DNA of 64,000 nucleotides, from positions 1 to 64,000 of the IMG/VR virus record IMGVR_UViG_3300043447_000408. The stretch is one strand, 5' to 3'. This DNA is from a virus (Duplodnaviria > Heunggongvirae > Uroviricota > Caudoviricetes). Below, piece after piece: positions 38,732 through 64,000 of this stretch (positions within the stretch are counted from its first letter, which is position 1; each line of letters starts with the position of its first letter). A program made the translations under genes and the position numbers. Below the pieces are notes generated by a model. That model saw only the letters and a program-made list of their open reading frames with translations. It made no database searches and was not told where the DNA came from.

Positions 38732-39505
38732 TTATTTAGGTAAATAATCGGGAAAATTGGATTTTACAAACTGAAGTAGTTTTTTGGAGTATTCTTCGTT
38801 GTGTTTTGGTGTTGCGTGTTTACCATCAATTGAGAATTCACGGAAATCTCCGTAGTCACCATCGAACCGATATTTGTCAGAATATTCGTTATCCATCAGG
38901 AAAGAACCGTTCCATATATATGGGATGCTCCTATTCTCCAAATAATTGGTGATTAGAAGATGGTTTTTGTACCAATTGATTAAATCGTTCTCGTCGTGGG
39001 TAATCCTTGCAATTGATTTGTACTCCTCTTTCCCCTCACTATCTTCCTTAAAATAACCCCAAGGAGTCATATGAAATGGTTCCAACTCTCCGTTGTATCG
39101 ATAGTATTCTTTACGGGATGGGTAGGTGTACATTAAGTTAACCAAATTAGGTCTTATCTTTTGGGTTAAGGTGATTACACATCTAGCAATGTAATCATTA
39201 CTACGTCCACCAAACCCCAAATTTAAATCTACCCCGTTCTGTATCTGTCTTGAGAAATAGTGAGGCCAAGTTTGGTTATCACTAACCCCTACACCTTCGG
39301 TGTGGGAACAACCAACTGACATTATTCTAAACCCATCCTTATATAATGAATCTCCCCTGAACCCCATTTCATTGTATGTGTAGGTATTCGTTTCGGAAAT
39401 GTCGGAACCTGATGTGTTAAATGTTTTATTCCTACGTTCATCTAATCTCCAAGAATGGTTACCCACCTCAAACCCCGAACTTGTCCAAAACTTCATTGAT
39501 TTCAT
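38732..39505 (-). CDS. SGNH hydrolase-like protein (GCS variant)
   Basis: block I SVGCSHTEGVGV, block V DGKHATPKHNEE. Confidence 0.55.
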   Translation of the reverse strand: MKSMKFWTSSGFEVGNHSWRLDERRNKTFNTSGSDISETNTYTYNEMGFRGDSLYKDGFRIMSVGCSHTEGVGVSDNQTWPHYFSRQIQNGVDLNLGFGGRSNDYIARCVITLTQKIRPNLVNLMYTYPSRKEYYRYNGELEPFHMTPWGYFKEDSEGKEEYKSIARITHDENDLINWYKNHLLITNYLENRSIPYIWNGSFLMDNEYSDKYRFDGDYGDFREFSIDGKHATPKHNEEYSKKLLQFVKSNFPDYLPK

Positions 39506-40200
39506 ATTAAATTCTTGTTTCTAATGAAATGACTAACTTTATTTTTATCCGCAATGTGACAAACCCCATTCATTGATAACTCATCAAACGATGGGTTATG
39601 TTTATATAGGTAATTTATATCATCAAAGTATAAATTTAAATATTGTTGATTTAAAGTTATTGGTGGTATCCCGTGGTAACGTTTGTTAAAAAAATCGTAA
39701 TTTGACTCAATAACATCTAAAACTTCGGAATATGCTTTATTCACATTTCTAAAGTTGCGAGACGCAATTATTGAGGTGTTATTCAATTCCATATAATCTA
39801 ACGAGGTATTTGAATATAGTTTATGTAGTTCGGTAAAATGTTCAATTTGTGAACTCGATAAAGGATGTTTGTAACATAAATTTAGTTTATCCTTTTTAAT
39901 TATATCTAATAATTTTTTAATATCCTCAACTACTAAATCATTATCCAAATGTATAAAAGGAAACTGAATTTCGGATAGTACTTTTAATTTAGGATATGAC
40001 CATATTGTTGGTTTTCGGTATCTATCCGATAGGGACAATTCAACCCAATCATATACTAAGTCTAAATTTTTAAAATAATCAATATCGGAATATATTATAG
40101 GAACTTCACCCTGTATATTCAAACTTTGAATTGAGTACTTTAAGTAAATTTCAGTAATCTCTTTGAGTCTGGTTGGTAGATATGTGAATACTATTCTCAT
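39502..40200 (-). CDS. hypothetical protein
   Basis: 232-aa ORF, ends NLI. Confidence 0.5.
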   Translation of the reverse strand: MRIVFTYLPTRLKEITEIYLKYSIQSLNIQGEVPIIYSDIDYFKNLDLVYDWVELSLSDRYRKPTIWSYPKLKVLSEIQFPFIHLDNDLVVEDIKKLLDIIKKDKLNLCYKHPLSSSQIEHFTELHKLYSNTSLDYMELNNTSIIASRNFRNVNKAYSEVLDVIESNYDFFNKRYHGIPPITLNQQYLNLYFDDINYLYKHNPSFDELSMNGVCHIADKNKVSHFIRNKNLI

Positions 40201-41444
40201 TATAGTAATGGTCGTTTTGGTATGGGTTCGTTAGATATTGTACCATTAACCATCATATCTAACATTGAATTTTCTTTATGTAATCTATCAATAAAAATGT
40301 CGTGACATTCTTTAATCCAATCCTTACATAGTTGATAATTGTTGTCAAAATCACTAATGAATGTTCTTACAAAATCCGCAAATAGTTTAGCATTTCCTTG
40401 ATATTGTTTGGACTCATCATAAAAAGGATGTTTTCTAATCCCAACCAAATCCATAATACAATCGTATGGATATGAATGAGTGGAAATGAAAGGAACGTTT
40501 GCTAAAATTAATCCTAATGACTTTTCACTTAGGTATTGACTGTGGTAATCAGCAGAATTATGAGCCCAAGATTCGTCACATATTTGAATTTTAGACATTG
40601 GTAAAATCCTCAAGAAAAAGTCAAGACCTACAGTTATGTTTGTTAATATCCTTAAGTTCTGAAAATCAATTTCAGAATCGTAATCATTTAAGTAAGCTCC
40701 TTCAATTTTTCTATATTTTGGTTGGACTGAGTTATGTTCAATAACATTCGTTTGTGAAACAAATATATCTTCTATTTGTGTTAACTCTTCAGCTATTTTA
40801 ACTCTGAGGGGTTTATGTGCTCTAACCGAATAGCCCATTTTATATTTTGGAACTATAACATCACTAACATTTTTATAATCATAAAACCACCTAATACTAA
40901 TCATTTCATTCCATTGAAAAATAATGTTAGTGAATGGATTGTATAAGTTTGGGTGTTTACTTAATACTATTTTATTAGTAAAAATATTATCAGTTAATAT
41001 ATAATGATTTGATAATCTAAGAATTTGATTCTCAATTTCTTCAATTTGTATTGTTCCGTCTGTCTTTACTTTTGCGTTATCATTCTTAATGAATATTTTT
41101 TCAGTTCTAAATAAAGATACCACCCAATTCTTTTTGTCTTCAATGAGGTCCGCCATTCTTTCGATTATGGCAAAAGAATCCGAACCTTTATGTTCGGTGT
41201 TTTCAAAATTTGTATCTTGACCTCTTTGTCTAAGTGCTCCAAAGAAATCAATTATGTGAATCCCCTCATCATCATTTATCTCAGGATTAAATGACACTTC
41301 AAAGTTCTTTCCTCCGTACTCAAATGTGATATCCCTAATCGCACCGTTAGTGTTATCCACTTCAACCATCTCTTTGTTCTTAACATTATGAAAGAACTTT
41401 TGAAATAACATATCGGTATAATAATGATGAACGAATATTTTCAT
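40200..41444 (-). CDS. hypothetical protein (414 aa)
   Basis: long ORF, no motif recognised. Confidence 0.5.
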   Translation of the reverse strand: MKIFVHHYYTDMLFQKFFHNVKNKEMVEVDNTNGAIRDITFEYGGKNFEVSFNPEINDDEGIHIIDFFGALRQRGQDTNFENTEHKGSDSFAIIERMADLIEDKKNWVVSLFRTEKIFIKNDNAKVKTDGTIQIEEIENQILRLSNHYILTDNIFTNKIVLSKHPNLYNPFTNIIFQWNEMISIRWFYDYKNVSDVIVPKYKMGYSVRAHKPLRVKIAEELTQIEDIFVSQTNVIEHNSVQPKYRKIEGAYLNDYDSEIDFQNLRILTNITVGLDFFLRILPMSKIQICDESWAHNSADYHSQYLSEKSLGLILANVPFISTHSYPYDCIMDLVGIRKHPFYDESKQYQGNAKLFADFVRTFISDFDNNYQLCKDWIKECHDIFIDRLHKENSMLDMMVNGTISNEPIPKRPLL

Positions 41445-41447
41445 AGG

Positions 41448-41945
41448 TTAAATTAATTTCTTGATTGTTTTATCTCTATCACCTTTTCTTAATCTCTCCT
41501 CACTGTTGAAATCAAAAATATCTTCATAATACGTAATTGGGACATTAAGTTTGGTGGATAAGTCACTTAACTCCTTATTCCATTTTATAATGTCGTTGTG
41601 GCACAGTTCAAAAATATCTGTAGGTATCTCTTCATAAACATAAGGTTTGTTTGAGTCATAATTTTTAATCTTTGAGAAGTATGTTTGGTAAGCGTGTGAT
41701 TCTGTACACTCTTTAACGTTTCTTCTCGTTAATAATATCACCTCATCAAAGTTTTTTGATAGTTGTATATTATCGTTGTGATGACATATTATTGTTTTAA
41801 CCACAACATTCTTTTCACTATTATATTCAACTCTACCAGTACCATCAAACGGTTCAAACAAAGGTTTTAAATTTTTCTCTTTTGCTAATTTGTGTAACAA
41901 TGAAGTAGAACCTGTTCTTGGTAGGGAGATTATTAATACACTCAT
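41448..41945 (-). CDS. NodH/Stf0-like sulfotransferase
   Basis: 5'-PSB-like loop IISLPRTGSTSLL at N-terminus; LLTRRN..ES 3'-PB-like; short (165 aa). Confidence 0.5.
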   Translation of the reverse strand: MSVLIISLPRTGSTSLLHKLAKEKNLKPLFEPFDGTGRVEYNSEKNVVVKTIICHHNDNIQLSKNFDEVILLTRRNVKECTESHAYQTYFSKIKNYDSNKPYVYEEIPTDIFELCHNDIIKWNKELSDLSTKLNVPITYYEDIFDFNSEERLRKGDRDKTIKKLI

Positions 41946-42508
41946 AACAATGTTTTATTACTTTTAACTCTCGGATAATCAAAATCAGTTTCGGTCATCC
42001 ACACATTTAACGCATATCTTATTCCCTTAGTTACCGGTAAAACTCCGTGATATGTTTCCGAACCATTGAATGAAATACTATCACCCAATTTCAAATCACA
42101 TAATGTTAAACCGTCCAATTTCTCAAAGTTGTATGGTGGATTCTCATCTTGGGTTAACACAAATTGACCACCTTCAAAATCGTCAGAAAGAACGATAACA
42201 GTCGTCAACTCACTTGACTTGTCTTTATGTAGATTAAGGTACCTACCATCATAGTACGATGTTAAACTTATATTGAAATTTTTTAAATTAAATGTTGAAT
42301 AATCAAACCATAATTTAAACTCTCCATTTTTGTAATTGGTTGTTAATAAATTAATAATTCTTTCTTTAAAATTGGAATCGTACATTCTTCTACAATCCCA
42401 TACTTCGGTTGGTTTATATGAAAAGGGTTCACCGAACTCAAGACAAAAATCAATTATATCTTTAGCGGTTTCTCTATCACAAAAATTATTGTTTATGTTA
42501 TAATTCAT
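41942..42508 (-). CDS. 2OG-Fe(II) oxygenase (prolyl-4-hydroxylase-like)
   Basis: HKD (HxD), distal YHGV His, RYALNVW Arg. Confidence 0.7.
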   Translation of the reverse strand: MNYNINNNFCDRETAKDIIDFCLEFGEPFSYKPTEVWDCRRMYDSNFKERIINLLTTNYKNGEFKLWFDYSTFNLKNFNISLTSYYDGRYLNLHKDKSSELTTVIVLSDDFEGGQFVLTQDENPPYNFEKLDGLTLCDLKLGDSISFNGSETYHGVLPVTKGIRYALNVWMTETDFDYPRVKSNKTLL

Positions 42509-43326
42509 AGTAGATATGAATTTTTCTTTTTATTATGAATTAGTAAATTACCTTCATTTATGAATTTATACAATTCCTCAGCAATTAATTTATATCCATT
42601 GTTACTTGGATGTTTACCTGCGGTTGTGTCCACCCATCGATTATTATCCTCCCAAACATCTTTTCTATTTGTGTCGATTAACAAATTAGCCATTGTTTTA
42701 TCTCTATAACCCCAATATCTTTCACCCTCAATCAAATGAGTTTTATCAACCAGAACATCAATATTTTTGTTAATCATAGTATCAAACGCATCACAAAAAA
42801 CATATCTAATCCCCAACTCTTTAAACATAAATTGTAAGTGTAGAATGTAGTTTTGGTTAACTATGTCATAGTACGTGTCATTAAACAAATTACTAATGTA
42901 GTAATCTCTAAAATTTTTTTCTGCTCTATTATAGTTTACATTATCCCCACTAACACCGTCGAAAATATATTTGAAAAGATGTTGTTTACTCTTATATCGT
43001 TGACCCCAAATATGAAAACTATTCTCGTTCGGAAAAAATGGTAATTGGTCTCTTAATGAGGAGGACCACATAATAACAACAAAATCATCTTGAGTGATGA
43101 TTTCATTTTTTAATTGATAACAAACTGTATTGAATATTGAGTTGTTTGAAAAAGCCCCAACTCCGTTATTTTTAACTTCACATTCAAGTAGTTCTGATAA
43201 GTGTTTTGGCCAACAATATTTTTGTCTTATGTTAGTTCTTTCCTCAGGAATTTCTGTTGTTAATTCTTCCTCAACATTACCCCCAACACCTTCTGTCCAA
43301 CTATCTCCATATGTGAATAACTTCAT
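42505..43326 (-). CDS. SGNH/GDSL hydrolase
   Basis: block I LFTYGDSWTEGVGG, block V AGKHPSNNGYKLIAE. Confidence 0.6.
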   Translation of the reverse strand: MKLFTYGDSWTEGVGGNVEEELTTEIPEERTNIRQKYCWPKHLSELLECEVKNNGVGAFSNNSIFNTVCYQLKNEIITQDDFVVIMWSSSLRDQLPFFPNENSFHIWGQRYKSKQHLFKYIFDGVSGDNVNYNRAEKNFRDYYISNLFNDTYYDIVNQNYILHLQFMFKELGIRYVFCDAFDTMINKNIDVLVDKTHLIEGERYWGYRDKTMANLLIDTNRKDVWEDNNRWVDTTAGKHPSNNGYKLIAEELYKFINEGNLLIHNKKKNSYLL

Positions 43327-43337
43327 AAAACATTATC

Positions 43338-43481
43338 TTATTCCCCCAAGTGTTTAACCTTAATAGCAGTTACAACCGCCTCAAACGCAGTTGCTACTTT
43401 TGTTTTTAGTTCACTTGAAATGGGTGCAACAATTGCTTTAATTGTTTGTGCGGGTCTTTCTATTCTTTCTTTTTGTGCCAT
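43338..43481 (-). CDS. small hypothetical protein (47 aa), not in ORF track
   Basis: MAQKERIERPAQTIKAIVAPISSELKTKVATAFEAVVTAIKVKHLGE fills the gap between flanking genes. Confidence 0.3.
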   Translation of the reverse strand: MAQKERIERPAQTIKAIVAPISSELKTKVATAFEAVVTAIKVKHLGE

Positions 43482-43493
43482 AATAAATTAGTT

Positions 43494-44987
43494 TTAGATT
43501 TTAGGTAATGGTACGTTACTACAACTTGGGCAGTACCAAGAATTACACCAATGTCCACAATAGTTCCAAGGACACCAACAAGTGTTGTGCATCACACTGA
43601 AATCACCGTCACCAATGTCGACTAAGAATAAATCCGAAGATTCAAAGTCCAAACTGTAAATGGTTTTTTGTGCGTGTTCCATTTCCAAACCAGTAATTTC
43701 AACAGTTGTTAATAGATTGGTATTCGCGTCTGTGATTACCAATTTGTCACCAACATACATTTTATTGACTTTTTCAAATCTGGTTGAAGTTGAGTCTTTC
43801 TCCTCAATATAATAAGTTGCTGACGGTGCGTCGGTCCAAGTTCTACCATCAGATAATGTTATTCTGATGTAAATCGTATCAACAGCGCCAGACACCATCG
43901 CATTTAATGTGGTTCCGGTTTGAATTAATGTTGAGTTGTCTTGTGCAACTGTACTATCCCACCCAAATGTTTCAATCTTACTTTGCTCAAATTTAGCTGC
44001 GTGGTTATCATTTAAGTCTACGTAATCAATTGAACGAACATAATCACCCAATTCTATGGTATCAACATCTAATAATGTTCCGTCATATTTTAATATAACA
44101 CTATCATCATCAGTGTGATAATCATTCTTTGCGTAGTTACCTAATTCCTTAGTAATATATTTGTATCTACTTTTCTGATTTAACTTATTAGTTCCCGTAA
44201 CAAATTCATCATCTGAGAATGTTAATGGTATAATTGTTGATTGTGTATATCCACCCATATGGATAACATCCAATTCAGGTCCATATATAATGTCAATACT
44301 TCTTATTATTGAATATCTACCTTGGACTAAGTTGTTTTCGGAAAAAATGAATTCTTGAGCTAAGTGATTTGGTTCTACTAAATTTGCCTTCATAGATTCT
44401 AAATCCTCATTATTTGATATTCTATATAGTGCAGGATAATCCATTGGATTATAAGAAGGGTTTCTTGGTTTTATTAAAATATTTGGGGTCGATGTGGTTG
44501 TATAATCCACTGAATCTATTGTATCAAAATTTATTTCACTAGTCTCAAAATATGTTTTTGGGATAAACTCTGACTGACCCATTAAATTAAAAAATTCAAA
44601 CTTATCCGCACAGTAGGTTTCATCGACTAAAGCGGTGGTATCAAAGGATTGTCTCAGTATAAACTTGTGAACATCGTCTTCAATGTATGGTACCGTAACA
44701 GAACCCACTGGCACAATAAATTCAGTGAATGACATATTATTTTCTTGACACTTTTCTTCTAAAATTTTCTTAAATCTATATTGTTCGGTTAAGGGTTTAT
44801 ATGCATCCCCTTCGGTCCATATTAAATAGAATTCAGTAATGTTGTTGTCAACCAACATCGTAAATAACGAGGTATAATCAAGGAAATCAGCACCCTCATT
44901 ATAAATTGTGGTGTTTGTGTTTATTTCCAAAAACTTCACCGAGTCTCCTGTTTGTAGTAAGTCACTACCAATTATAGTTGCTTTCAT
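43494..44987 (-). CDS. hypothetical protein with C-terminal Cys/Trp-rich tail
   Basis: 497 aa ending HNTCWCPWNYCGHWCNSWYCPSCSNVPLPKI. Confidence 0.55.
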   Translation of the reverse strand: MKATIIGSDLLQTGDSVKFLEINTNTTIYNEGADFLDYTSLFTMLVDNNITEFYLIWTEGDAYKPLTEQYRFKKILEEKCQENNMSFTEFIVPVGSVTVPYIEDDVHKFILRQSFDTTALVDETYCADKFEFFNLMGQSEFIPKTYFETSEINFDTIDSVDYTTTSTPNILIKPRNPSYNPMDYPALYRISNNEDLESMKANLVEPNHLAQEFIFSENNLVQGRYSIIRSIDIIYGPELDVIHMGGYTQSTIIPLTFSDDEFVTGTNKLNQKSRYKYITKELGNYAKNDYHTDDDSVILKYDGTLLDVDTIELGDYVRSIDYVDLNDNHAAKFEQSKIETFGWDSTVAQDNSTLIQTGTTLNAMVSGAVDTIYIRITLSDGRTWTDAPSATYYIEEKDSTSTRFEKVNKMYVGDKLVITDANTNLLTTVEITGLEMEHAQKTIYSLDFESSDLFLVDIGDGDFSVMHNTCWCPWNYCGHWCNSWYCPSCSNVPLPKI

Positions 44988-45078
44988 AAATTTTGTTTCC
45001 TTACAATAAATATATCTATAAAAATATTATTAGAAAAGGATATTTATAATGTTTATTTTTTTATTATATATGTATATA

Positions 45079-45366
45079 TTAAATTAAAGTACTATTTTTC
45101 TTACTCATAATGGGTGTTATATATTCTGAATCAACCTCTTCCCAATAACCTTTGGTACAAGGATTAAAATTCTTCGAAAAAACTTTTTTGTTTAATGGGC
45201 ATCCACAATCACCACAATAAGCAGACCATTTTACACCTTTCAAAACTTCTTTCCTATATTCACAACCCAAACAAACATTTAATCTTTTTTCTGCCAACTC
45301 CTCTTCTATCGGGGTTGGGTTGAATGATGTTTTCCAAGCTTCAAAAATTTCTTTATAGTCTATCAT
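45079..45366 (-). CDS. small Cys-rich (zinc-ribbon-like) protein
   Basis: CLGCEY...YCGDCGCP...NPC. Confidence 0.45.
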   Translation of the reverse strand: MIDYKEIFEAWKTSFNPTPIEEELAEKRLNVCLGCEYRKEVLKGVKWSAYCGDCGCPLNKKVFSKNFNPCTKGYWEEVDSEYITPIMSKKNSTLI

Positions 45367-46154
45367 ATTAATGTCTTGGTTAATTTTGGTAGGTCGTAAT
45401 AATCATAAATACTGTTGTATTTTTTTATAAAATCATCATCTAAATTCACAACACATTTCATATGTTTACTTGAATTAACCGAATGAAGCTCAAATGGTTT
45501 TTCTAAAATATTTGATACCCATTCCTCTAACTTATCTAATTCATCAAAATCAAACCAAATTATTGTTTGGTCATTATTTGTCCAATTTGATACGGGGGTT
45601 AATAGAATGTCAATCATATTAACTGCATATCCCTTGGTGTTAGATTTAAAATATTCTTCTTCTGATTTTTTAAATTTTGATGTTACTGAGATATCTATTT
45701 TTTCATCAATCAATTTCAAATCCATTAGAAATTCACAAATTTTATTCCATCTTTGTTTTTTAGTTGCAACATCTTCTTTTGTAAAAAAGAATAATTCATC
45801 CAATGATAGTTTGGAGAACTTTTTATAAATCTTACTAAATCCCATCCTTTTTAAATCAAATAAGACGTGTTTATATAATGAATAAAATCTTTCGTGTCTT
45901 TGTCTTTTAACAGCAATAATCGGGTAGTTTCTACCAAATTTAGTCTGTAAATCAATTAAAGATTCGTGTCCGTGATAGATATAATTCATTAAGTCTTTTG
46001 TATCTACCGATTTAAAATCAATGTCTGAATTTGCTAATTCCCACTCACCATTATGTGTCTGTACTTTAACATCATTAACTAAACAAGAATAATGAAATGC
46101 GGTAGACGCACATCTCGGTAAACTCAAATAAAAAAACTTATTTTCAACTAACAT
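45363..46154 (-). CDS. sulfotransferase-like protein
   Basis: N-terminal FYLSLPRCASTAF resembles the PSB loop of the 41448-41945 protein. Confidence 0.4.
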   Translation of the reverse strand: MLVENKFFYLSLPRCASTAFHYSCLVNDVKVQTHNGEWELANSDIDFKSVDTKDLMNYIYHGHESLIDLQTKFGRNYPIIAVKRQRHERFYSLYKHVLFDLKRMGFSKIYKKFSKLSLDELFFFTKEDVATKKQRWNKICEFLMDLKLIDEKIDISVTSKFKKSEEEYFKSNTKGYAVNMIDILLTPVSNWTNNDQTIIWFDFDELDKLEEWVSNILEKPFELHSVNSSKHMKCVVNLDDDFIKKYNSIYDYYDLPKLTKTLI

Positions 46155-46723
46155 TATATTAAGGATTTTTTAATTATTTTGGAGGGCCATACATTTATGG
46201 AGTATCTAACTCCGCTTGTTATTTCTTTTACTGAATGTACGATGTTTGAATCAAAAATGAATACACTACCTTCTTTTTTAGGTACCGAATACTCAGTTTC
46301 GTTTATCATATACTTAACATCTCCATCCTCGTATTGGTCGTTTAATTGAATTATATAAGTTATTGTTGCACCATTTACAATTTCGTGACTATCGGGATGC
46401 CAATCTAAAAAATCACCTTCCCCATATCTGTTAAATGAATAATTGTGTATTCGATTATACGTGATTCCATTATATGGGTTTAATTCATTAGATAAAGTAA
46501 TGATTTTATCGGTTAACTCTTTTAGTATTGGTAAGTCTAATAATCCGTTAGTAAAATATGTTCCCATTCTTTTATTACCACTATACTCAGTATTTTCTGT
46601 TAATACTTTCCCGTTAACCACTAATGATGATTTCATTTGTACTAAATTAGTTGATTCACCTAACTTTATTAAAGACTTGCACTCATCAGGAGTTAAAAAA
46701 TTTTCAATGTACCTCGTAAACAT
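46154..46723 (-). CDS. 2OG-Fe(II) oxygenase (P4H-like)
   Basis: WHPDSHE, HSVKE, RYSINVW. Confidence 0.7.
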   Translation of the reverse strand: MFTRYIENFLTPDECKSLIKLGESTNLVQMKSSLVVNGKVLTENTEYSGNKRMGTYFTNGLLDLPILKELTDKIITLSNELNPYNGITYNRIHNYSFNRYGEGDFLDWHPDSHEIVNGATITYIIQLNDQYEDGDVKYMINETEYSVPKKEGSVFIFDSNIVHSVKEITSGVRYSINVWPSKIIKKSLI

Positions 46724-56547: not shown

Positions 56548-56628
56548 AGTTTAAATATAAAAAATTTTTTCTTAAATTTAAAGTGGTTGACTATTGATAA
56601 AAAATTATTTAAATTAGTGTTTACAGAT
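56548..56628. promoter_or_regulatory. divergent intergenic region at strand switch
   Basis: AT-rich 81-nt gap between minus and plus gene blocks. Confidence 0.25.
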
Positions 56629-57597
56629 ATGAAAATTTTAATCACAGGAGGTGCTGGATACTTAGGTTCAGTGATAACAAAAAAACTACTCGATTTGGGT
56701 CATAAAGTGACTGTAATTGACACGTTATTGTTCAATCAGATTTCCCCACTCCAATTTACTTACAATCCAAATTATAACTTCATTTATGGTGATGTTAGAA
56801 ACCTAACCCTGTTTGAAAGGGAAGTTAAATCTCACGATGTTATAATTCCACTAGCCGCAATTGTTGGGTTCCCTGCTTGTAAAAAAGACCCTGAATTAGC
56901 AACACAAATCAACTATAACCAAATCATTAATTTGATGAACTTCATTAGTCCAAATCAAATGATTATCTATCCAAACACAAATAGTGGATATGGTGTTGGT
57001 AAAGATGATAAGTTTTGCACTGAAGAATCACCATTGAATCCGATATCGGTATATGGTGAAACTAAATGTGCTGCGGAAAGACATTTACTTAATTACACCA
57101 ATGCGACTTGTTTTAGATTAGCAACTGTATTTGGTTCTTCTCCAAGAATGAGAACTGATTTGTTGGTAAATGAGTTTGTTTATAAAGCAATGACAGACAA
57201 GTACATTGTTGTATTTGAAAAACATTTCAAACGTAACTTCATTCATATTCAAGATGTTGGTGATGTGTTTACATTCGCTCTTGAAAATTATGAAACAATG
57301 AAAGAGAATGTTTACAATGTTGGGTTGAGTGACGCTAATTTAAGTAAACAAGAATTATTAGAAAAAATAAAATTATACATTCCTGATTTTGCAATCACTT
57401 ACTCAGATTTCTATGAAGACCCTGACAAAAGGGATTACATAGTTTCAAATGAAAAGATTGAAAAGACGGGATGGAAACCAAAGTGGTCTTTGGATGATGG
57501 TATTAAAGAACTGATGAAAACATATCAAGTACTAATACCAAAAATGACATCGGAATTTAGAAATGGATTTCCATTAGGATACGCAAACAATACATAA
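56629..57597 (+). CDS. NAD-dependent sugar epimerase/dehydratase
   Basis: start at ATG giving MKILITGGAGYLGS (track ORF begins at upstream TTG); YGETKCAAE. Confidence 0.8.
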   Translation: MKILITGGAGYLGSVITKKLLDLGHKVTVIDTLLFNQISPLQFTYNPNYNFIYGDVRNLTLFEREVKSHDVIIPLAAIVGFPACKKDPELATQINYNQIINLMNFISPNQMIIYPNTNSGYGVGKDDKFCTEESPLNPISVYGETKCAAERHLLNYTNATCFRLATVFGSSPRMRTDLLVNEFVYKAMTDKYIVVFEKHFKRNFIHIQDVGDVFTFALENYETMKENVYNVGLSDANLSKQELLEKIKLYIPDFAITYSDFYEDPDKRDYIVSNEKIEKTGWKPKWSLDDGIKELMKTYQVLIPKMTSEFRNGFPLGYANNT

Positions 57598-57598
57598 T

Positions 57599-58144
57599 AT
57601 GAGTAATAAATGGGATGAGTTTGTTGAAACTCCATCAAAAGTTTTTGGTTATGAAGTACCAATTTTCACTCCTTCGATTTATAGAGAATATAGGGGTGAA
57701 ATTTTTACCACGTTTCATAGTGAAGAACATCCTGTGATGAAACATATTCATTATGATAAAAGTGAAATCTCAATTCACGGAAGATTTTCAAAATCATATA
57801 AGGGTGTTCTAAGAGGATTACATTACGATACTAAAACTTGGAAATTAGTTCAGGCTGCTGTTGGTGACATTTACTTGGTTGTGTTAGATATGAGACCATC
57901 ATCACCGACATATGGTGATTGGGAATCATTTATGATAACTGAGAAAGATAGAAACCAAGTATTAGTTCCACCAGGTTTTGCAAACGGACATTACGCACTA
58001 ACTGATTGTATGTTTCACTATAATCTATTCTATAAAGATGGTTATGTGGATGCAAATGAACAAGGTGTAGTTAAATGGAATGACCCTGAGTATCAAATGG
58101 AATGGCCGACAGATAAACCAATATTACAAAAAAGAGACAGATGA
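57599..58144 (+). CDS. RmlC-like cupin sugar 3,5-epimerase
   Basis: EYRGEIFTTFH, KGVLRGLHYD, HYALTD. Confidence 0.75.
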   Translation: MSNKWDEFVETPSKVFGYEVPIFTPSIYREYRGEIFTTFHSEEHPVMKHIHYDKSEISIHGRFSKSYKGVLRGLHYDTKTWKLVQAAVGDIYLVVLDMRPSSPTYGDWESFMITEKDRNQVLVPPGFANGHYALTDCMFHYNLFYKDGYVDANEQGVVKWNDPEYQMEWPTDKPILQKRDR

Positions 58145-58773
58145 TAAAAAATTTAGATGACCATCTACCAATTGTTAGGGAGATGTTATGGGATAAAGAA
58201 GGACTTATACAATTTGAGAGAAAAATGGCCGACCATTGGGAAGCTGGTAGAGTTCGTGGACCGATTCACTTAAGTGGTGGAAATGAAGATGAACTAATTG
58301 AAATTTTCAAAAGAGTTAAAACAACAGATTGGGTATTCTCAACTTGGAGGTCTCATTATCACGCATTGTTAAAAGGTGTACCTTCTGAATGGTTAGAAGA
58401 GGAGATATTAGCTGGTAGGTCAATTACAATTGTGAATAAAGACGAGAAGTTTTATTCATCCGCAATTGTTGGTGGTACAATTCCAATTGCTGTTGGTGTT
58501 GCTATGGCTTTGAAACAACAAGGTAGTAAAGATAAGGTGTGGTGTTTCGTTGGTGATATGTCTTTCGAGACTGGTGGTTTTATGGAAAACTACAAATACG
58601 CCAAGAACTTTGACCTCCCAATTCAATTTGTAGTTGAGGATAATGGTGTATCAACAAACACTCCAACAATTGAAACTTGGAAAGTAAAAACTGAAGCACC
58701 TGAGGGTGTAATTTGGTATAATTATATTAAACAATGGCCGCACTACGGAACAGGTAAATGGGTAATTTTTTAA
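58141..58773 (+). CDS. TPP-binding subunit of split transketolase/E1-like enzyme
   Basis: thiamine-diphosphate motif GDMSFETGG...FVVEDNG. Confidence 0.7.
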   Translation: MIKNLDDHLPIVREMLWDKEGLIQFERKMADHWEAGRVRGPIHLSGGNEDELIEIFKRVKTTDWVFSTWRSHYHALLKGVPSEWLEEEILAGRSITIVNKDEKFYSSAIVGGTIPIAVGVAMALKQQGSKDKVWCFVGDMSFETGGFMENYKYAKNFDLPIQFVVEDNGVSTNTPTIETWKVKTEAPEGVIWYNYIKQWPHYGTGKWVIF

Positions 58774-60041
58774 ATTTAGTATATGACGATTGGCACCACA
58801 ATGCAACTCATCCAAATATTAATGGTGAGAAGGAATTTGGTGCGAATAATTTCAGAAGATTCGATGGTTTGATGAATTTTTATGAATTTAATAATTTCAA
58901 AAGATTTAGGATAACGGAGGTTAAGAATCATCCTAATGAAAATTTCTATTATGTTATTGGCCATATTCACGAGATTGGTCACGCATTAAAAGCTCATAAC
59001 ATATTACCATTACCAACCAAGGTAATTAAACATTTAAAAGAAAATCCAAACCTCTATGTTATTTTTCTAAATGAACACGAGGTGGAAACTGAAGAAACCG
59101 TTATTGGAATTGAAAAATGGGTAATTGATAAGGGAATCGACCCAAAACAAATATATGTTATCAACAACAATTACAATTTAAAGAAGTATAAAGAGGATAA
59201 CAATTTAAGTTTGAATGTCCATACAATTAAGTTCTTACCAATTAAAGTTGCTAAGGAGTTAGATATGTACGATACTGATTTCATAACTGATAAACAATCT
59301 GAATTTTTTGTTTCACATAACAGGACACCAAAAGTTCATAGATACGCTCTTTTAGTTTTACTTAAAAAGAACAAATTGTTACAGGAAGTTGATTGGTCTT
59401 TGGTGATGGGGTGGAATCATAAAATGGATATGAAACACACAACAATAAACACCTTCTATCACGAATTATTCACAGAAAAGGAAATTCAAAAAATGAAATC
59501 TGAGATTGATTTTTTTGAGGATATTGATATCAAGAAAAGTAAGTACGAAGACAATATTGATTGGTTTGATAGGGATTGGGATAGTCACGTAAGGAGTCTT
59601 CCGTTTCACATTGAATGGAATCGAGTTTATGAGAAGCAAACATATGAGAACTCATACGTTAACATAACTACGGAATCTTGTTTTAAAAGAGATAATGTTG
59701 TCCATTTAAGTGAGAAAACATTCAAACCTCTTTTCTTTAATCAATATCCGCTTTATGTTGCAAGTATGGACCACGTAAAGACTGTAAAAGATGTTTATGG
59801 GTTTGATGTGTTCGAAGATATATTAGACCATTCATATGATTCTGAATCTGACCAAAGAAAACGATTATTCAAATTGTTTGATGAGATAAAGAGAATATAT
59901 AAAAATAAAAACAAGTTCATTTCAAATTACATTAACCTAAAAGATAGGTTTGAAAATAATAAAAAGTTAGTACTGGAATTATTAAATAACAAAGATGATG
60001 TGGAGTTTTTCACATCACTAATCGAAAATAAGAAAAAATAA
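58758..60041 (+). CDS. putative fucosyltransferase-like glycosyltransferase, paralog of 55276-56547
   Basis: FVSHNRTPKVHR, LSEKTFKPLFFNQYPLYVAS, LDHSYDSESDQRKR. Confidence 0.45.
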   Translation: MGNFLNLVYDDWHHNATHPNINGEKEFGANNFRRFDGLMNFYEFNNFKRFRITEVKNHPNENFYYVIGHIHEIGHALKAHNILPLPTKVIKHLKENPNLYVIFLNEHEVETEETVIGIEKWVIDKGIDPKQIYVINNNYNLKKYKEDNNLSLNVHTIKFLPIKVAKELDMYDTDFITDKQSEFFVSHNRTPKVHRYALLVLLKKNKLLQEVDWSLVMGWNHKMDMKHTTINTFYHELFTEKEIQKMKSEIDFFEDIDIKKSKYEDNIDWFDRDWDSHVRSLPFHIEWNRVYEKQTYENSYVNITTESCFKRDNVVHLSEKTFKPLFFNQYPLYVASMDHVKTVKDVYGFDVFEDILDHSYDSESDQRKRLFKLFDEIKRIYKNKNKFISNYINLKDRFENNKKLVLELLNNKDDVEFFTSLIENKKK

Positions 60042-61814
60042 ATGAAAAAAATTTTAATTACAGGTTGTTCAGGTTTAGTCGGTGTTCATTTGGTTAAGGA
60101 ATCGATTATGAGAAACCATTTAGTCATTGGTGTTGACAAAGTTAAATCGGAGCATTTACCAGAATCTGATAGGTTTAAGTTTTATGAATTAGACCTTATG
60201 AATGAGGAGAACATTACAAAATTATTTGAAGAAGAAAAACCAGACGCAGTATTCAACTGCTTCGGTGTTAAGGGTTCACCATTAAAAGCTAAAACTCAAC
60301 CGGTGGACTTTCTATATCCATCACAAAAAATCAATACTGAAATAATTCACCAATGTGCCAAAAATAACGTTTGGTTAGTTTTTGTAAGTTCTGTTGGTGT
60401 TTACTCTCCTGCTGAGAAATTCTTAGAAACTGATGTATGGAAGACATTACCTTCTGAAAATGATTGGTTTCCTGCTTGGTCAAAAAGAATTGGTGAGTTA
60501 TTGGTAGGTGCATATAGAAAACAATATGGTTATAAAAAATGGACTATTGTTAGACCCGCAAACATATTTGGTGAGTATGATGATTGGAGTGGTAATGGTA
60601 CTGTAATCTCAAGTATTATTAAGAAAGTATATGAAGCCGAGGATGGTGGTGAAATTGAAGCTTGGGGAGATGGTACACCTGTTAGAGATTTTATTTATGC
60701 TAATGACGTTGCAGTTGCTATTTTAAATTGTTATAAGAATAGAGTGAATGACGTAGTTAATTTAGGTTCTGGTGAAACGATAACAATTCAATCAATGATT
60801 GAAGAGGTTATTAAAATTAGTGGTAAAAATTTAACCATTAAATGGGATAAATCAAAACCAAATGGAGATATGCGTAGACAAATGGATACCAGTCTTCAAA
60901 ACGGTTATCAACTATTACCTTTTGTAGGATTTAAGGAAGCACTTAGAAGAACGTATAGTTATTATGAAAAACACTATGGTACACTTGAATTGAATATGGA
61001 CATTGAAGAGTATCTTGAAAAGGGATTTTATGTTGGTAAAGTTAAAGAATTTATTAAAAAACACGAATGGGATGATTATCTAAAAAGATTAGAAAATATT
61101 AGAAAAAAATCTGAAGATAAGAAAGGTTATGGATATCGTTTTGAATTTAGAATACCAACAGACTATTCTGAAGAAGGATTTGATTATGTTAGAACAATAC
61201 CCGCAGATGAGATAGAAGAAAGAGAAAAATTCGTTACCGAAAAAGGTTGGGATGTTGTTCAGCGTTGGTGGGAGTTGAGGGATAGTGAAGGAAATTTCAA
61301 TGACGATATATTCTACTTTAGAGATAAGGTATCAAGATTTGTTCATAAGATATATCCTGAAGTAAAAGAATGGAATATTGGGCACAACGATGGGTTAACA
61401 ATTTATGAAAATGGTGACTTTATTGAACCTCATATTGATGGTCAAAATCCTGATAGATATTGTGTGGTATTAATTTACTTATCAGACGAAAAAGACTATA
61501 TTGATGGTGGAGGAAAATTAATATTACAAGATAAGGGATATTATGATGAAGTAATTCCAATCCATTTAAATTTTGCAATGTTAGATTTCTCAAAAAATAA
61601 TTCAAATCACACAGTTGAAATGGTTAAGAATGATTTTAAAAGATTTACATACATTAATTTCATTCAAGTTAGACCTTATAGTCCTCCCGCAAGATACAAT
61701 GGTAATGAAAAAATTGAAGAGGTGTGGGAACCTGATACTGATGTATGTTATGGTAAACCATTTGAGATTCCACAAACTAATGATGTAAAAAAAGTTAAAA
61801 AAAGTTTAATATGA
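60042..61814 (+). CDS. fusion protein: NAD-dependent epimerase/reductase + 2OG-Fe(II) oxygenase
   Basis: N-terminal MKKILITGCSGLVGVHLV Rossmann; C-terminal EPHIDG, NHTVEMV, RFTYINF; ends KKSLI like other oxygenase paralogs. Confidence 0.7.
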   Translation: MKKILITGCSGLVGVHLVKESIMRNHLVIGVDKVKSEHLPESDRFKFYELDLMNEENITKLFEEEKPDAVFNCFGVKGSPLKAKTQPVDFLYPSQKINTEIIHQCAKNNVWLVFVSSVGVYSPAEKFLETDVWKTLPSENDWFPAWSKRIGELLVGAYRKQYGYKKWTIVRPANIFGEYDDWSGNGTVISSIIKKVYEAEDGGEIEAWGDGTPVRDFIYANDVAVAILNCYKNRVNDVVNLGSGETITIQSMIEEVIKISGKNLTIKWDKSKPNGDMRRQMDTSLQNGYQLLPFVGFKEALRRTYSYYEKHYGTLELNMDIEEYLEKGFYVGKVKEFIKKHEWDDYLKRLENIRKKSEDKKGYGYRFEFRIPTDYSEEGFDYVRTIPADEIEEREKFVTEKGWDVVQRWWELRDSEGNFNDDIFYFRDKVSRFVHKIYPEVKEWNIGHNDGLTIYENGDFIEPHIDGQNPDRYCVVLIYLSDEKDYIDGGGKLILQDKGYYDEVIPIHLNFAMLDFSKNNSNHTVEMVKNDFKRFTYINFIQVRPYSPPARYNGNEKIEEVWEPDTDVCYGKPFEIPQTNDVKKVKKSLI

Positions 61815-62785
61815 TAAATAAAAATTCAAAAATTTTAATAACCGGTGGTTCTGGTTTGGTTGGGCAAAACTTAACAAATAGGTTAGTGTCCGAAGGATAC
61901 AACAACATAAGAGTTTCTTTACACGCTAGAGAACCAAGAATAAAACATATGGATGTAGAATATTGGTATTCTGATTTACAAACACAAGAAGGTTGTAAAA
62001 CTATTACCAAAGATGTTGATGTTGTTTTTCATTGTGCAGCATCTACTTCAAATGCTGTTGATACTGTCAATGACCCATTAGCTCACGTAACTCCAAATGT
62101 TGCAATGAACAATTTTTTAATTGATGCCGCTTGGAGAAATAACGTTAAACATTATGTATTTATTTCATCGAACACTGTGTATCCACCTAAAGGTGATGAA
62201 CCTGTGGTTGAAACTGATTTCTTATTTGATGAACCTTATCCTGTTTATTTCCCTGTTGGTTGGATGAAACGTTACGCTGAGGTTCAATGTGAATTGTATG
62301 CAAAATACTTACCACGAACAATGAAATGTACTGTCATCAGACCTGCTAATTTGTTTGGCCCTCACGATAAGTACGATTTCAATAAGTGTCACGTAACACC
62401 CGCAACTATTCGTAAAGTTGCTGACCAATTAAATCCAATTCCTGTTTGGGGTGATGGTACTGAGTTAAGAGACTTACTATATGTTGAAGATTTTGTTGAA
62501 TCTTTACAAGTTGTAATGGAAAATGAAACTGAAATGTTCCAAGTATATAACGTTGGTTCAAATAAAGTTTATTCAGTACTTGAAGTATTGGATGAAATGA
62601 AGAAAATTGCAAACTACGATGCACCTACTGAGTTCATTAGTGGTAAACCTTCAATGATTCCAACAAGAAAAATCGATTCAAATAAAATAAAAGATAAATT
62701 AGGTTGGGAAGCTAAAACTTCATTATCTGAAGGTTTAGAGAAAGCCTACGAATGGTATAACGAAAACAAAAACGAATTTAATTAA
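61811..62785 (+). CDS. NAD-dependent epimerase/reductase (GDP-sugar synthase-like)
   Basis: ILITGGSGLVGQNL, VFHCAAS. Confidence 0.75.
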   Translation: MINKNSKILITGGSGLVGQNLTNRLVSEGYNNIRVSLHAREPRIKHMDVEYWYSDLQTQEGCKTITKDVDVVFHCAASTSNAVDTVNDPLAHVTPNVAMNNFLIDAAWRNNVKHYVFISSNTVYPPKGDEPVVETDFLFDEPYPVYFPVGWMKRYAEVQCELYAKYLPRTMKCTVIRPANLFGPHDKYDFNKCHVTPATIRKVADQLNPIPVWGDGTELRDLLYVEDFVESLQVVMENETEMFQVYNVGSNKVYSVLEVLDEMKKIANYDAPTEFISGKPSMIPTRKIDSNKIKDKLGWEAKTSLSEGLEKAYEWYNENKNEFN

Positions 62786-63594
62786 TGAAAAAGGGAATAG
62801 TATTTGCTGGTTGTTCTTTTACTTGGGGTCAAGGTCTTTATTATTATTCAAAAATGAGTACAGTTAAAGAACCCGCACCCGAACAATTCGAACAAAAATT
62901 AGTAACAGATGCACATAAACGTTTTATGTCTACTTTAAGATTTCCAAGATTAGTCGCAAATCATTTTGAAACATTTGAAATTGTTAAAAAAGAAAATGGT
63001 GGTAGTGAGGACGAGTCGTTATTGTTTTTAGATTACATTTTTACCAATAGAAACGGATTAACTCACTTACTTGAGGAAAAATTTTCATATGAAGAAATAG
63101 GGTATGCCGTTTTCCAAACCAGTCAACCAGGTAGATGTTCATTTACATTTACACATAAGGGAAATGACCACAAAATGAATTGGATTGGTTCGTCTCAAGG
63201 AATCCAAAGAATCTTCTTTGAATGGATGGAAGAAAATGGTATTGGTGGATTTCCTGAATGGTATGTTGAACACTGTAAACAACAAGTTAAAAAAATTAAA
63301 GAGACGTTTGAATTTTTGGAGAGTAAGGGTATTAAGTGTATAATTGTTAATTGGCAAGATGACTATGTTAAGTATGTTAAGGAAGACCCTTATTTACACG
63401 ACAGAATGGTCTATCTAAATTATAACGGTACTGAATATACCAATATCGATTATATGATGAGACTTAATAATGGTTTAACCATTAGAGATGATTTTGATGA
63501 ATTAGGAGAACATCCACCGAAAGATTCTCACCCATCTAAAAAATGTCATAGAATAATTGCAGACGCAGTAATCAAAAAAATAGAATCATTATGA
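62785..63594 (+). CDS. SGNH hydrolase-like protein (GCS variant)
   Basis: block I IVFAGCSFTWGQG, block V KDSHPSKKCHRIIADAV. Confidence 0.55.
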   Translation: MKKGIVFAGCSFTWGQGLYYYSKMSTVKEPAPEQFEQKLVTDAHKRFMSTLRFPRLVANHFETFEIVKKENGGSEDESLLFLDYIFTNRNGLTHLLEEKFSYEEIGYAVFQTSQPGRCSFTFTHKGNDHKMNWIGSSQGIQRIFFEWMEENGIGGFPEWYVEHCKQQVKKIKETFEFLESKGIKCIIVNWQDDYVKYVKEDPYLHDRMVYLNYNGTEYTNIDYMMRLNNGLTIRDDFDELGEHPPKDSHPSKKCHRIIADAVIKKIESL

Positions 63595-64000
63595 GTTCAC
63601 CACAATACACCCCATATAAGGACGCTTTAACCAAATCAATGACTTACCTTGGTCAACAAGAAGATACGGTCTTCTTGGGTCAGCAAATCCTTTGGCACGG
63701 TAATCCAATGAGTACAACTATCGGAGAAGTTCCAAAAGATAAGTTAATTGAACTTCCTGTTATGGAAGAATCGCAAATGGGAATGAGTTTAGGTATGGCA
63801 ATGGCGGGTAAAACTGTTATTACATTTTATCCTCGATGGGATTTTTTAATTTGTGCAACTAATCAATTAGTAAATCACGTAGATAAAATTAAATTAATGA
63901 GTAATCAAGAATGGAATCCTAATATGATTATTCGATTAGGTAAGGGTTCTGATAAGCCATTAGACCCTGGTCATCAACATAGAGGTAGTTATTTAGCATC
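63591..64000 (+). CDS. transketolase C-terminal-like / E1-beta-like subunit (3' truncated by window end)
   Basis: ATGA overlap; ELPVMEESQMGMSLGMAMAGK...LICATNQLVNHVDKIKLMSNQ...IRLGKG matches pyrimidine-binding domain of TPP enzymes. Confidence 0.7.
   Translation, partial: MSSPQYTPYKDALTKSMTYLGQQEDTVFLGQQILWHGNPMSTTIGEVPKDKLIELPVMEESQMGMSLGMAMAGKTVITFYPRWDFLICATNQLVNHVDKIKLMSNQEWNPNMIIRLGKGSDKPLDPGHQHRGSYLA

Follow-up and report, generated by a model that had tools for sequence, protein, structure and literature searches.

What do the sulfotransferases of an uncultured phage act on? The question was raised by a gene island in a 64,000-nucleotide stretch of DNA (positions 1 to 64,000 of the IMG/VR record IMGVR_UViG_3300043447_000408, a virus of the Caudoviricetes), which is referred to below as the window. 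The island consists of tightly packed open reading frames (ORFs), many of them overlapping, which lie on the minus strand at 38732-56547 and on the plus strand at 56587-63594 (Table 1). From the letters alone, a carbamoyltransferase, two sulfotransferases (here ST1 and ST2) and an adenosine 5'-phosphosulfate (APS) kinase had been picked out and taken, with the glycosyltransferases, epimerases and SGNH esterase-like proteins around them, for a toolkit that decorates a glycan in the manner of the rhizobial Nod factors. All four genes were real minus-strand ORFs, and the carbamoyltransferase, the sulfation module and the sugar-nucleotide and glycosyltransferase (GT) genes do co-occur in phage DNA. 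The present analysis puts at about even chances another reading, namely that the minus-strand block at about 38.7-53.5 kb would be a cluster with which uncultured large phages mature a peptide or protein, similar to those for ribosomally synthesised peptides that are modified post-translationally (RiPPs), and would lie beside a glycan block. The candidate substrate is a Hint-domain protein at 43494-44987 (the core protein). This gene was absent from the earlier, sequence-only reading, as were the Trp_halogenase-family gene, the 2-oxoglutarate (2OG) oxygenase domains, the HxGH nucleotidyltransferase (NTase), and the zinc-ribbon-like and DUF2061-like proteins.

Table 1. Genes of the island and the adjoining tail fibre gene, with their occurrence in 32 related loci. 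P4H, prolyl-4-hydroxylase; SDR, short-chain dehydrogenase/reductase; TPP, thiamine diphosphate; NMNAT, nicotinamide mononucleotide adenylyltransferase.
Feature	Position	Strand	Size (aa)	C-terminal tag	Properties	Loci (of 32)
Tail fibre	34847..38677	-	1276		PHROG tail-fibre families, E down to 7.5e-25; adjoins the island, directly upstream	
Three accessory genes	38732..41444	-	414; 257 (SGNH-like)	...PLL (414 aa); ...KNLI (DUF6734); SGNH-like untagged	414-aa protein; DUF6734 protein with DxD motif; SGNH-like protein	
ST1, small sulfotransferase-fold protein	41448..41945	-	165	...KKLI		23
P4H-type 2OG-Fe(II) oxygenase	41942..42508	-		...KTLL	36.4 bits	
SGNH/GDSL-like protein	42505..43326	-	273	...SYLL	GDSWTEG motif	18
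47-aa ORF	43338..43481	-	47		helical, Lys/Ala-rich; conserved, directly downstream of the core gene	32
Core protein	43494..44987	-	497		N-terminal ~290 aa, degenerate Hint ~291-468, 29-aa tail	32
Zinc-ribbon-like protein	45079..45366	-	95	...STLI	Cys-rich; matches phrog_13558	30
ST2, sulfotransferase-fold protein	45363..46154	-	263	...KTLI		
P4H-type 2OG-Fe(II) oxygenase	46154..46723	-		...KSLI	48 bits	29 (2OG oxygenases in general also 29)
2OG-oxygenase-like protein	46724..47377	-	217	...KSLI	22.2 bits, below gathering score	32
Flavin-dependent halogenase-family enzyme	47379..48623	-	414	...KELI	Trp_halogenase 298 bits	26
P4H-type 2OG-Fe(II) oxygenase	48620..49168	-		...QNLI	61.6 bits	
DUF2061-like small membrane protein	49158..49379	-	73		homologues carry PF09834	25
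HxGH NTase	49363..49725	-	120		overlaps kinase stop codon; weakly NMNAT-like	25
APS-kinase-family P-loop kinase	49722..50156	-	144	untagged	short lid; Pfam APS_kinase 58.5 bits	22 (always beside the NTase gene)
Two genes	50189..51759	-	314; 208	untagged	314-aa protein weakly DUF6734-like (22.1 bits); poorly conserved across loci	
38-aa ORF	51761..51877	-	38		conserved, basic; overlaps carbamoyltransferase stop codon	
NodU/CmcH-family O-carbamoyltransferase	51874..53511	-	545	untagged		12 (within 10 kb)
Start of glycan-type block	53521..56547	-	246 (SGNH-like); 423		DUF6734 (73 bits, DxD motif), SGNH-like protein, 423-aa protein	
Nucleotide-sugar operon	56587..63594	+	427; 269 (SGNH-like)	...KSLI (fusion)	SDR epimerase/dehydratase, RmlC-like 3,5-epimerase, TPP E1-alpha-like fragment, 427-aa protein, SDR-2OG oxygenase fusion, further SDR, SGNH-like protein	

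The core protein and its Hint domain

The 29 residues at the end of the core protein are rich in Cys, Trp, Tyr and Pro (TCWCPWNYCGHWCNSWYCPSCSNVPLPKI) and follow an invariant His467-Asn468. An exhaustive search gave 261 representative clusters of the core family, with lengths of 460-776 aa. Nearly all full-length members carried the pattern ...[IV]D[VF]E..D.F[LI]...x-His-Asn, followed by a Cys-rich tail. The tails were hypervariable and always Cys-rich, their length and sequence being unrelated between subfamilies, and the cargo of the family was a Cys-rich peptide of 20-60 residues.

Judged by profile comparison, core residues 288-468 form a Hint domain. An alignment of this segment from 107 members matched the genuine Hint domains of longer relatives end-to-end over 133 columns in hhalign (probability 98.6%, E = 7e-15; 98.3% in the local mode), and the reversed and shuffled controls gave E values of at least 0.07. 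In addition, a diversified core profile of 58 members matched the KlbA intein 2jmz (4e-8) and the VMA intein 4o1s (5e-5) in the PDB and, more weakly, a hedgehog Hint domain (4e-3) and the BIL domain 2lwy (0.025). The inteins were found by the diversified profile only; Pfam returned nothing for 27 close core homologues, nor did the PDB when the profile was built from close homologues.

The Hint domain is degenerate. The Cys1 position is occupied by His291 (H, G, K, I or L in the family), the block-B His is absent from the alignment, and the residue after the Hint Asn is T, S, A, G, N or P, with no conserved nucleophile, so that splicing and N-terminal cleavage are excluded. The terminal His-Asn alone has been kept. 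In intein chemistry, a retained His-Asn permits C-terminal cleavage through cyclisation of the Asn.

Longer members of the family carry other domains directly after the tail or the His-Asn, namely PT-HINT (49-77 bits), Intein_splicing and, in one case, Peptidase_S74. In P0242, P0249, P0252 and P0254, the Cys-rich segment is preceded by the degenerate Hint with its His-Asn and followed by a complete terminal Hint starting with CF.AGT, and self-cleaving modules would therefore flank the segment on both sides. Two additional Hints stand directly after the His-Asn in P0352 and P0361. Cyclisation of the kind used in split-intein circular ligation of peptides and proteins (SICLOPPS) was considered for the long relatives and rejected, since the residue after the His-Asn was not Cys.

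A similar arrangement is known from polymorphic toxins with PT-HINT and from BIL domains, where a Hint stands directly before a hypervariable C-terminal cargo and BIL cleavage without splicing is possible. In contrast to these, the Hint of the window has neither Cys1 nor the block-B His, its cargo is a Cys-rich peptide with no toxin domain, and it belongs to a phage tailoring cluster. The N-terminal domain of the core protein is possibly ATP-grasp-like, as weak RimK ATP-grasp matches were obtained for 3 of the 58 members (all E of at least 0.055). The PHROGs gave no match for the core protein, ST1 or ST2. Furthermore, a tblastn search of the core protein and ST2 against 50,697 GenBank phage records gave no match, nor did the distant core relative P0262, and scanning 185,579 prokaryotic genomes with a pattern from the close alignment brought up no core relatives.

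Gene order, the C-terminal tag and the sulfation module

Relatives were encoded in 173 IMG/VR loci, and the syntenic block was present in at least 173 contigs of uncultured phages. The occurrence of each gene was counted in 32 loci with a length of 17 kb or more, for which ST2 served as the anchor. On contigs with ST1 or ST2 homologues, the conserved order was carbamoyltransferase, 38-aa ORF, kinase, NTase, DUF2061-like protein, 2OG oxygenase, halogenase and 217-aa oxygenase-like protein, continuing with 2OG oxygenase, ST2, zinc-ribbon protein, core protein, 47-aa ORF, SGNH-like protein, 2OG oxygenase and ST1. The DUF6734, 423/427-aa and epimerase genes of the window were rarely or never conserved with the block, and the accessory genes at 38732-41444 occurred only in the closest subset of loci. 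This synteny comparison, which the sequence-only reading had proposed as a check, placed the sulfotransferases with the Hint-domain protein, while the carbamoyltransferase and the kinase stayed linked to the cluster even in a distant locus (L093).

Four distant clusters showed which parts of the block are constant. In L088 (core protein 32% identical), a B12-radical-SAM gene lies upstream, accompanied by zinc-ribbon, 2OG oxygenase, Sulfotransfer_2-like and SET-domain genes, more 2OG oxygenases and a second radical-SAM gene. L091 (27%) has a 46-aa ORF, 2OG oxygenases and a SET-domain protein. In L093 (31%), genes for an SDR, a carbamoyltransferase, a 38-aa ORF, the kinase, a 2OG oxygenase and the NTase lie directly upstream. 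L094 (42%) contains halogenase, ST2-like, zinc-ribbon, core, a 45-aa ORF, 2OG oxygenase, ST1-like and two GT/methyltransferase proteins of about 900 aa. The zinc-ribbon gene adjoins the core gene in L088, L093 and L094, and an ORF of 45-46 aa holds the position of the 47-aa ORF in L091 and L094. What stayed constant across these distant clusters was the core protein, together with the small ORF and a number of P4H-type oxygenases, and sulfation genes and the carbamoyltransferase were frequent. The halogenase, radical-SAM and SET enzymes varied by locus, with radical-SAM and SET enzymes replacing the halogenase in the distant versions. Anecdotally, Trp-rich tails were mostly accompanied by a halogenase, and the tail of L088, a single case, was Lys-rich and free of Trp in a cluster with SET and radical-SAM enzymes and no halogenase. 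Behind the cluster in L006, L007 and L094 come large GT/methyltransferase proteins.

The oxygenases belong to 2OG-FeII_Oxy_3 (PF13640, prolyl-4-hydroxylase-type); five domains reached the gathering score and a sixth protein scored about 22 bits. In the halogenase, GGGTAGW, the Lys in TVKGGLHLYNW and GFIEPLE were recognised by eye, and WxWxIP was degenerate (WMFKIP). P4H-type oxygenases act on proteins. Radical-SAM enzymes are common peptide modifiers, some of them acting on sugars, and flavin halogenases act on aromatic rings, frequently those of small molecules. To our knowledge, every SET-domain substrate is a protein.

A C-terminal tag, K-x-[LI]-[LI], is common to many of these enzymes. Fifteen of the 87 non-overlapping ORFs of the window end in [LI][LI], usually as K-x-L-I, against 2.0 expected (binomial P = 1.7e-9); between 38.7 and 49.2 kb, the share is 11 of 13 genes. 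The tagged genes of the island lie at 39502-49168 and 60042-61814. Outside the island, tagged genes were seen at 14106-14525, 22243-22905 (weakly GDSL-like) and 24930-25757. In the window and in L005, L006, L007, L088, L091 and L094, the tag was borne by oxygenases, the halogenase, both sulfotransferase types, SGNH-like, zinc-ribbon, radical-SAM and SET proteins. It was never found on the carbamoyltransferase, the kinase, the NTase, the DUF2061-like protein, the core protein, the small ORF, the large GTs or flanking genes such as HSP20. The codons of the tag varied while the residues stayed: the Ser at position -3 was encoded by both AGY and TCN, Leu by TTA, CTA, TTG and CTT, and each of the three stop codons occurred. 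Such synonymous and stop-codon variation among homologues indicates that selection acts on the tag peptide. An incidental origin of the tag from ATGA overlaps or a ribosome-binding sequence was rejected because of the synonymous and cross-family codon variation and the variable stop codons. The sulfotransferases, which had been counted as members of a glycan set, sit among P4H-type dioxygenases and a flavin halogenase, with which they have the tag in common.

Neither ST1 nor ST2 had a significant match in Pfam, NCBIfam, PHROG or the PDB sequences, and a NodH-type match was absent from the searched libraries; the best match of ST1 was Sulfotransfer_3 (E = 0.11, 34 residues). The metagenome relatives amounted to 413 and 323 proteins in the two families (E of at most 0.001), on contigs of up to 333 kb, and the families are distantly related to one another (hhalign E = 1.5e-5). 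In both alignments, an LPR(T/C)(G/A)ST motif was invariant, which resembles the loop binding 3'-phosphoadenosine 5'-phosphosulfate (PAPS) and has no Walker-A lysine, and a conserved Arg/Ser motif was present downstream. A distant ST2 homologue scored 21.6 bits with Sulfotransfer_2 (gathering score 22). Moreover, the nearest folds of the predicted models were carbohydrate sulfotransferases (Stf0 and the heparan-sulfate enzymes NST, 3-OST and 6-OST), and a sulfotransferase fold with a 5'-phosphosulfate-binding loop minus the Walker-A lysine was found. On these motifs and models, ST1 and ST2 are probably PAPS-dependent proteins of the sulfotransferase fold. Of the "NodH-like sulfotransferases" first proposed, the sulfotransferase part stands and the tie to NodH is unsupported.

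The kinase exceeded the Pfam gathering score of 21.1 for the APS kinase family and matched an APS kinase, 8a8h, best in the PDB (1e-9); the leading PDB matches were all APS kinases (1e-9 to 1e-7). The motifs GQPGAGKT, IDGDDLR, GRRANI and VSPY were visible in the alignments to 8a8h and 5cb6. The alignable part was restricted to residues 2-101 of 144, and the lid segment has about half the usual length. The proposed assignment to the APS kinases was borne out by Pfam but not by NCBIfam, where the protein stays below every cut-off (best 63.9 bits against at least 127; TIGR00455 59.6 against 138.7 bits). The NTase was likewise distant from its families, with 27.6 bits for the NCBIfam NMN adenylyltransferase (cut-off 127) and E = 0.04 for the Pfam family CTP_transf_like. 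It could be a minimal ATP sulfurylase that would complete PAPS synthesis; alternatively, the NTase could form a NadR-like pair with the kinase for NAD salvage. No ATP sulfurylase (NodP/Q) was found alongside the kinase and the sulfotransferases. As a separate observation, the kinase, NTase and DUF2061-like genes (49158-50156) move as a trio through the related loci. The literature searched on DUF2061 was uninformative.

Proposed peptide maturation weighed against other substrates

In the proposed pathway, the P4H-type 2OG oxygenases would hydroxylate the tail of the core protein, the flavin halogenase would halogenate its aromatic residues, and ST1 and ST2 would sulfate it, drawing their PAPS from the phage kinase, perhaps with the help of the HxGH NTase. 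Asn cyclisation at the C-terminus of the Hint domain would then free the tail as a peptide. The enzymes acting on this macromolecule would be recruited via their common C-terminal tag. The untagged carbamoyltransferase and the glycosyltransferases may attach a sugar to the same product or alter one on it, or they may serve the glycan block at 53.5-64 kb.

Maturation of a peptide or protein is favoured because the tag groups the sulfotransferases with the P4H oxygenases, the SET proteins and the halogenase, and because the sole invariant non-enzyme partner is the Hint-tailed protein. Furthermore, the replacement of the halogenase by SET and radical-SAM enzymes in distant clusters suggests a substrate of peptide or protein nature, which may be glycosylated. 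The architecture and neighbourhood, known here from the genes, are compatible with a RiPP cluster. As in RiPP clusters, the N-terminal part is conserved and the C-terminal segment after it is hypervariable and Cys-rich, and the tailoring set varies among the relatives of the window (2OG oxygenases, halogenase, radical SAM, methyltransferase and sulfotransferase). Unlike in RiPP clusters, the "leader" would comprise 468 aa in two domains, release is proposed to occur autocatalytically through the Hint domain with no dedicated protease, and recruitment would apparently depend on a tag on the enzymes and not on a recognition element in the leader.

The peptide-maturation reading is in agreement with previous predictions. 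Peptide or protein substrates were predicted for the dioxygenase/halogenase arrays of cyanophages by Iyer, Abhiman, de Souza and Aravind in 2010 (PMC2938197), and for bacterial hydroxylase-sulfotransferase-PAPS-synthetase neighbourhoods the same study predicted hydroxylation and then sulfation of a co-encoded protein. The Syn9 array (gp41-gp54) resembles the window in that several distantly related 2OG-Fe(II) oxygenases and a Trp-halogenase-family enzyme lie beside tail fibre genes; it differs in having no Hint/Cys-rich protein, no sulfotransferase/kinase module and no K-x-L-I tag. The bacterial beta-hydroxylase/sulfotransferase/PAPS-synthetase neighbourhoods combine, like the window, a hydroxylase, a sulfotransferase and PAPS supply with a candidate protein substrate (PMC2938197). 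The substrate there is tail-collar- or collagen-like, whereas the island has a Hint-linked Cys-rich tail and a minimal kinase and is phage-encoded. For the cyanophage clusters, Iyer et al. also suggested the synthesis of organohalogen metabolites (PMC2938197), and Sullivan et al. in 2010 raised the possibility of "stuffer" DNA for such clusters (PMC3037559). Both suggestions would suit a small-molecule product or unconnected auxiliary genes, which are considered last among the alternatives below.

Several points weigh against peptide maturation. The core Hint would be capable of C-terminal cleavage at most; the N-terminal part of about 290 aa gained no family assignment. The closest folds of ST2 and its weakly matching family, Sulfotransfer_2, are those of carbohydrate sulfotransferases, and the best structural match of ST1, Stf0, sulfates trehalose. 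NodU/CmcH enzymes usually carbamoylate sugars or small molecules, and the frequent action of these enzymes and of flavin halogenases on small molecules would also fit a metabolite as the product. GT/methyltransferase proteins and sugar-nucleotide genes adjoin the cluster in many loci, and the S74 domains in relatives of the core protein suggest a fibre-like structural protein and not a released peptide. In addition, the synteny counts were anchored on ST2, and the reverse dependence was sampled in five distant loci only. A glycopeptide product would reconcile the peptide and the glycan readings.

A narrower form of the peptide-maturation reading is put forward tentatively. The island could make an undescribed class of phage peptide natural products, in which a hypervariable Cys-rich peptide would be excised by the Hint domain, tailored by tag-recruited enzymes and supplied with PAPS by a minimal module of short-lid kinase and NTase. 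The hydroxylation, halogenation and sulfation (in relatives also methylation) of such a peptide might, by analogy, resemble the modifications of conotoxins, which is put just as tentatively.

Among the alternatives, the glycan reading survives best, although it is rather unlikely as a whole. It holds that the carbamoyltransferase, sulfotransferases, kinase, SGNH proteins, GTs and epimerases make a sulfated and carbamoylated saccharide of the host surface or the virion, and that the oxygenases, the halogenase and the Hint protein are unrelated neighbours. The carbamoyltransferase itself was confirmed, with 191.2 bits for Carbam_trans_N and 209 bits for Carbam_trans_C (gathering scores 24 and 27). 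Sugar-nucleotide and DxD/GT genes flank the cluster on both sides, with the large GT/methyltransferase proteins of L006, L007 and L094 as further support, and the carbohydrate-type neighbours of both sulfotransferase models and the weak Sulfotransfer_2 matches of homologues point the same way. Lipopolysaccharide (LPS) clusters and carbamoyltransferases are also known in large cyanomyoviruses (PMC3037559). However, the sulfotransferases are tagged like the oxygenases, the halogenase and the radical-SAM and SET enzymes, while the carbamoyltransferase, the kinase and the GTs are untagged, and ST2 was inseparable from the Hint protein, whereas the GT-like and epimerase genes of the window were not conserved with ST2.

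The Nod-factor analogy, on which the glycan reading was first built, is only partly supported. The overlap with the rhizobial NodU/NodH/NodPQ/NodL set is one of classes, namely a carbamoyltransferase of the NodU/CmcH family, PAPS-dependent sulfotransferase folds and an APS kinase. The carbamoyltransferase is no NodU equivalog (151.8 bits for NF041651 against a cut-off of 1000, over residues 249-511 only), no NodH match, ATP sulfurylase or NodL-type acetyltransferase was found in the window, and the sulfotransferases group with peptide-type modifiers. With the "Nol-like carbamoyltransferase" of the cyanomyoviruses S-SSM7, P-SSM2 and S-CAM1 and of Pelagibacter phage HTVC008M, the carbamoyltransferase has about 30% identity, and this class was listed among the sporadic genes of marine T4-like phages by Sullivan et al. 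(PMC3037559). P-SSM2, S-SSM7 and HTVC008M, which are large marine myoviruses, likewise have sugar-nucleotide and GT genes in hypervariable regions. In contrast, they have no DNA similarity to 38732-60000 of the window, sulfotransferases are not mentioned in PMC3037559, and homologues of ST2 and the core protein were not found in the GenBank phages.

The claim that the gene combination is not a described phage system holds in part. Carbamoyltransferases, Trp halogenases, 2OG oxygenase arrays and LPS clusters are already known in marine phages (PMC3037559, PMC2938197). In the literature searched, the PHROGs and the GenBank phages, no description was found of the Hint/Cys-rich core family and its fixed association with tailoring enzymes, of a sulfation module in such a context or of the enzyme tag. 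There is a substantial chance of a new class of system.

A structural role of the core protein has a low probability. It would be a virion or fibre-tip component with an attached Cys-rich tip for receptor binding or adhesion, which the tagged enzymes would modify before assembly; with similarly low probability, the tag would bring the enzymes to the assembly site and the neighbouring tail fibre might be modified too. The cluster abuts the tail fibre gene, as does the dioxygenase/halogenase array of Syn9 (L092), Peptidase_S74 chaperone domains typical of fibres occur in relatives of the core protein, and the hypervariability of the tails is like that of receptor-binding tips. Tail-collar or collagen-like substrates for hydroxylation and then sulfation were also proposed by Iyer et al. 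(PMC2938197). On the other side, no PHROG structural family matched the core protein, the fibre of the window has no collagen-like repeats, and the His-Asn before the tail and the extra Hints after it in relatives are hard to square with an attached tail. Given the S74 relatives and the adjacency of the tail fibre, such a structural role at the fibre tip deserves to be taken seriously as a variant.

It is very unlikely that the genes make a halogenated, hydroxylated and sulfated metabolite during infection, or are independent auxiliary genes of a hypervariable region with the Hint protein unrelated to them, since none of the loci was found to contain a scaffold-building enzyme (nonribosomal peptide synthetase, polyketide synthase or similar), gene order and content are kept in loci whose proteins have diverged to 27-60% identity, and the common protein-level tag speaks for a single coordinated system with a macromolecule as its target.

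If the peptide-maturation reading is true, abundant uncultured aquatic phages would carry machinery for a heavily modified, fast-diversifying Cys-rich peptide or fibre tip. This would be a new route of interaction between phage and host or between phages, and a new source of modified peptides. Moreover, a concrete candidate substrate would be at hand for the 2OG-oxygenase/halogenase arrays of marine phages, which have lacked a functional explanation since 2010. The C-terminal tag would represent a simple principle for recruiting enzymes, and Hint release would liberate a peptide with no protease; both would be of use outside the study of phages as well. For annotation, labels such as "sulfur or glycan auxiliary metabolic gene" on sulfotransferase and APS-kinase genes of this kind could mislead.

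Flanking genes and minor observations

The glycosyltransferases and epimerases that had been noted around the cluster were recovered as three SDR epimerase/dehydratases, an RmlC-like epimerase, GT4-like genes and three DUF6734 proteins. In the plus-strand operon, the Pfam scores were 115-147 bits for Epimerase, 114.5 bits for dTDP_sugar_isom and 56.9 bits for E1_dh. The E1_dh match lies at 58141-58773, where a 210-aa fragment resembling the E1-alpha part of thiamine-diphosphate-dependent dehydrogenases stands between the RmlC-like epimerase and the next gene. In this position it is reminiscent of the two-carbon branching enzymes in pathways to branched-chain deoxysugars. At 60042-61814, an SDR epimerase/dehydratase (Epimerase 145 bits) is fused to a C-terminal P4H-type 2OG oxygenase (30 bits), and this is the sole plus-strand gene of the sugar operon with a K-S-L-I tag.

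Three proteins of 414-427 aa (40200-41444, 55276-56547 and 58758-60041) had no family match and may be novel glycosyltransferase-like enzymes. Those at 55276 and 58758 are paralogous, with 30% identity over 93 residues and an NRxPxxHR-type motif in common. The PHROGs gave no match for the 414-, 423-, 208-, 257- and 246-aa proteins. ORFs of 38-39 aa hold the place of the 38-aa ORF in L006, L007 and L093.

The SGNH assignments, which had been put forward for multiple proteins of the island, consist of one near-threshold score and otherwise of motifs seen by eye. The protein at 42505-43326 reached 26.4 bits for DUF6071 (gathering score 27), and its homologues gave faint Lipase_GDSL matches. The protein at 38732 matched Lipase_GDSL_2 with E = 0.13, those at 54543 and 62785 had no match, and the G-[DC]-S and D-x-H-P motifs of these other SGNH-like proteins were recognised by eye.

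The phage origin of the island was upheld by the adjoining tail fibre gene, an RnlA-type RNA ligase, a thymidylate synthase and the 173 IMG/VR loci with relatives. Contamination with host DNA was rejected on the phage genes, on these loci and on the core-protein family, which was not found in the scan of cellular genomes. The GC content of the window is about 29-37%, and GT4-like glycosyltransferases lie at 26-29 kb. A megablast search of 38732-60000 against the GenBank phages gave no match, and the comparison of the RNA ligase gave no usable placement in a phage lineage. The thymidylate synthase (20803-21897) matches its counterpart in the Baltic Flavobacterium phages vB_FspM_immuto at 61% identity, far closer than the other matches found between the window and cultured phages, which hints weakly at a host among the Bacteroidota or at a related phage lineage.

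The tail fibre contains long repeats rich in Ser, Thr and Asn, with units such as SLNTYTSSNTTNINAIHT, and inspection of these repeats showed none that was collagen-like. By eye, its C-terminus resembles a Peptidase_S74 intramolecular chaperone. The convergent genes at 31503-32615 (plus strand) and 32608-33075 (minus strand) overlap at their stop codons. Their 3' ends (32590-32630) look by eye like an inverted repeat, AAGGAGGTTA...TAACCTCCTT, which could be a candidate bidirectional terminator hairpin.

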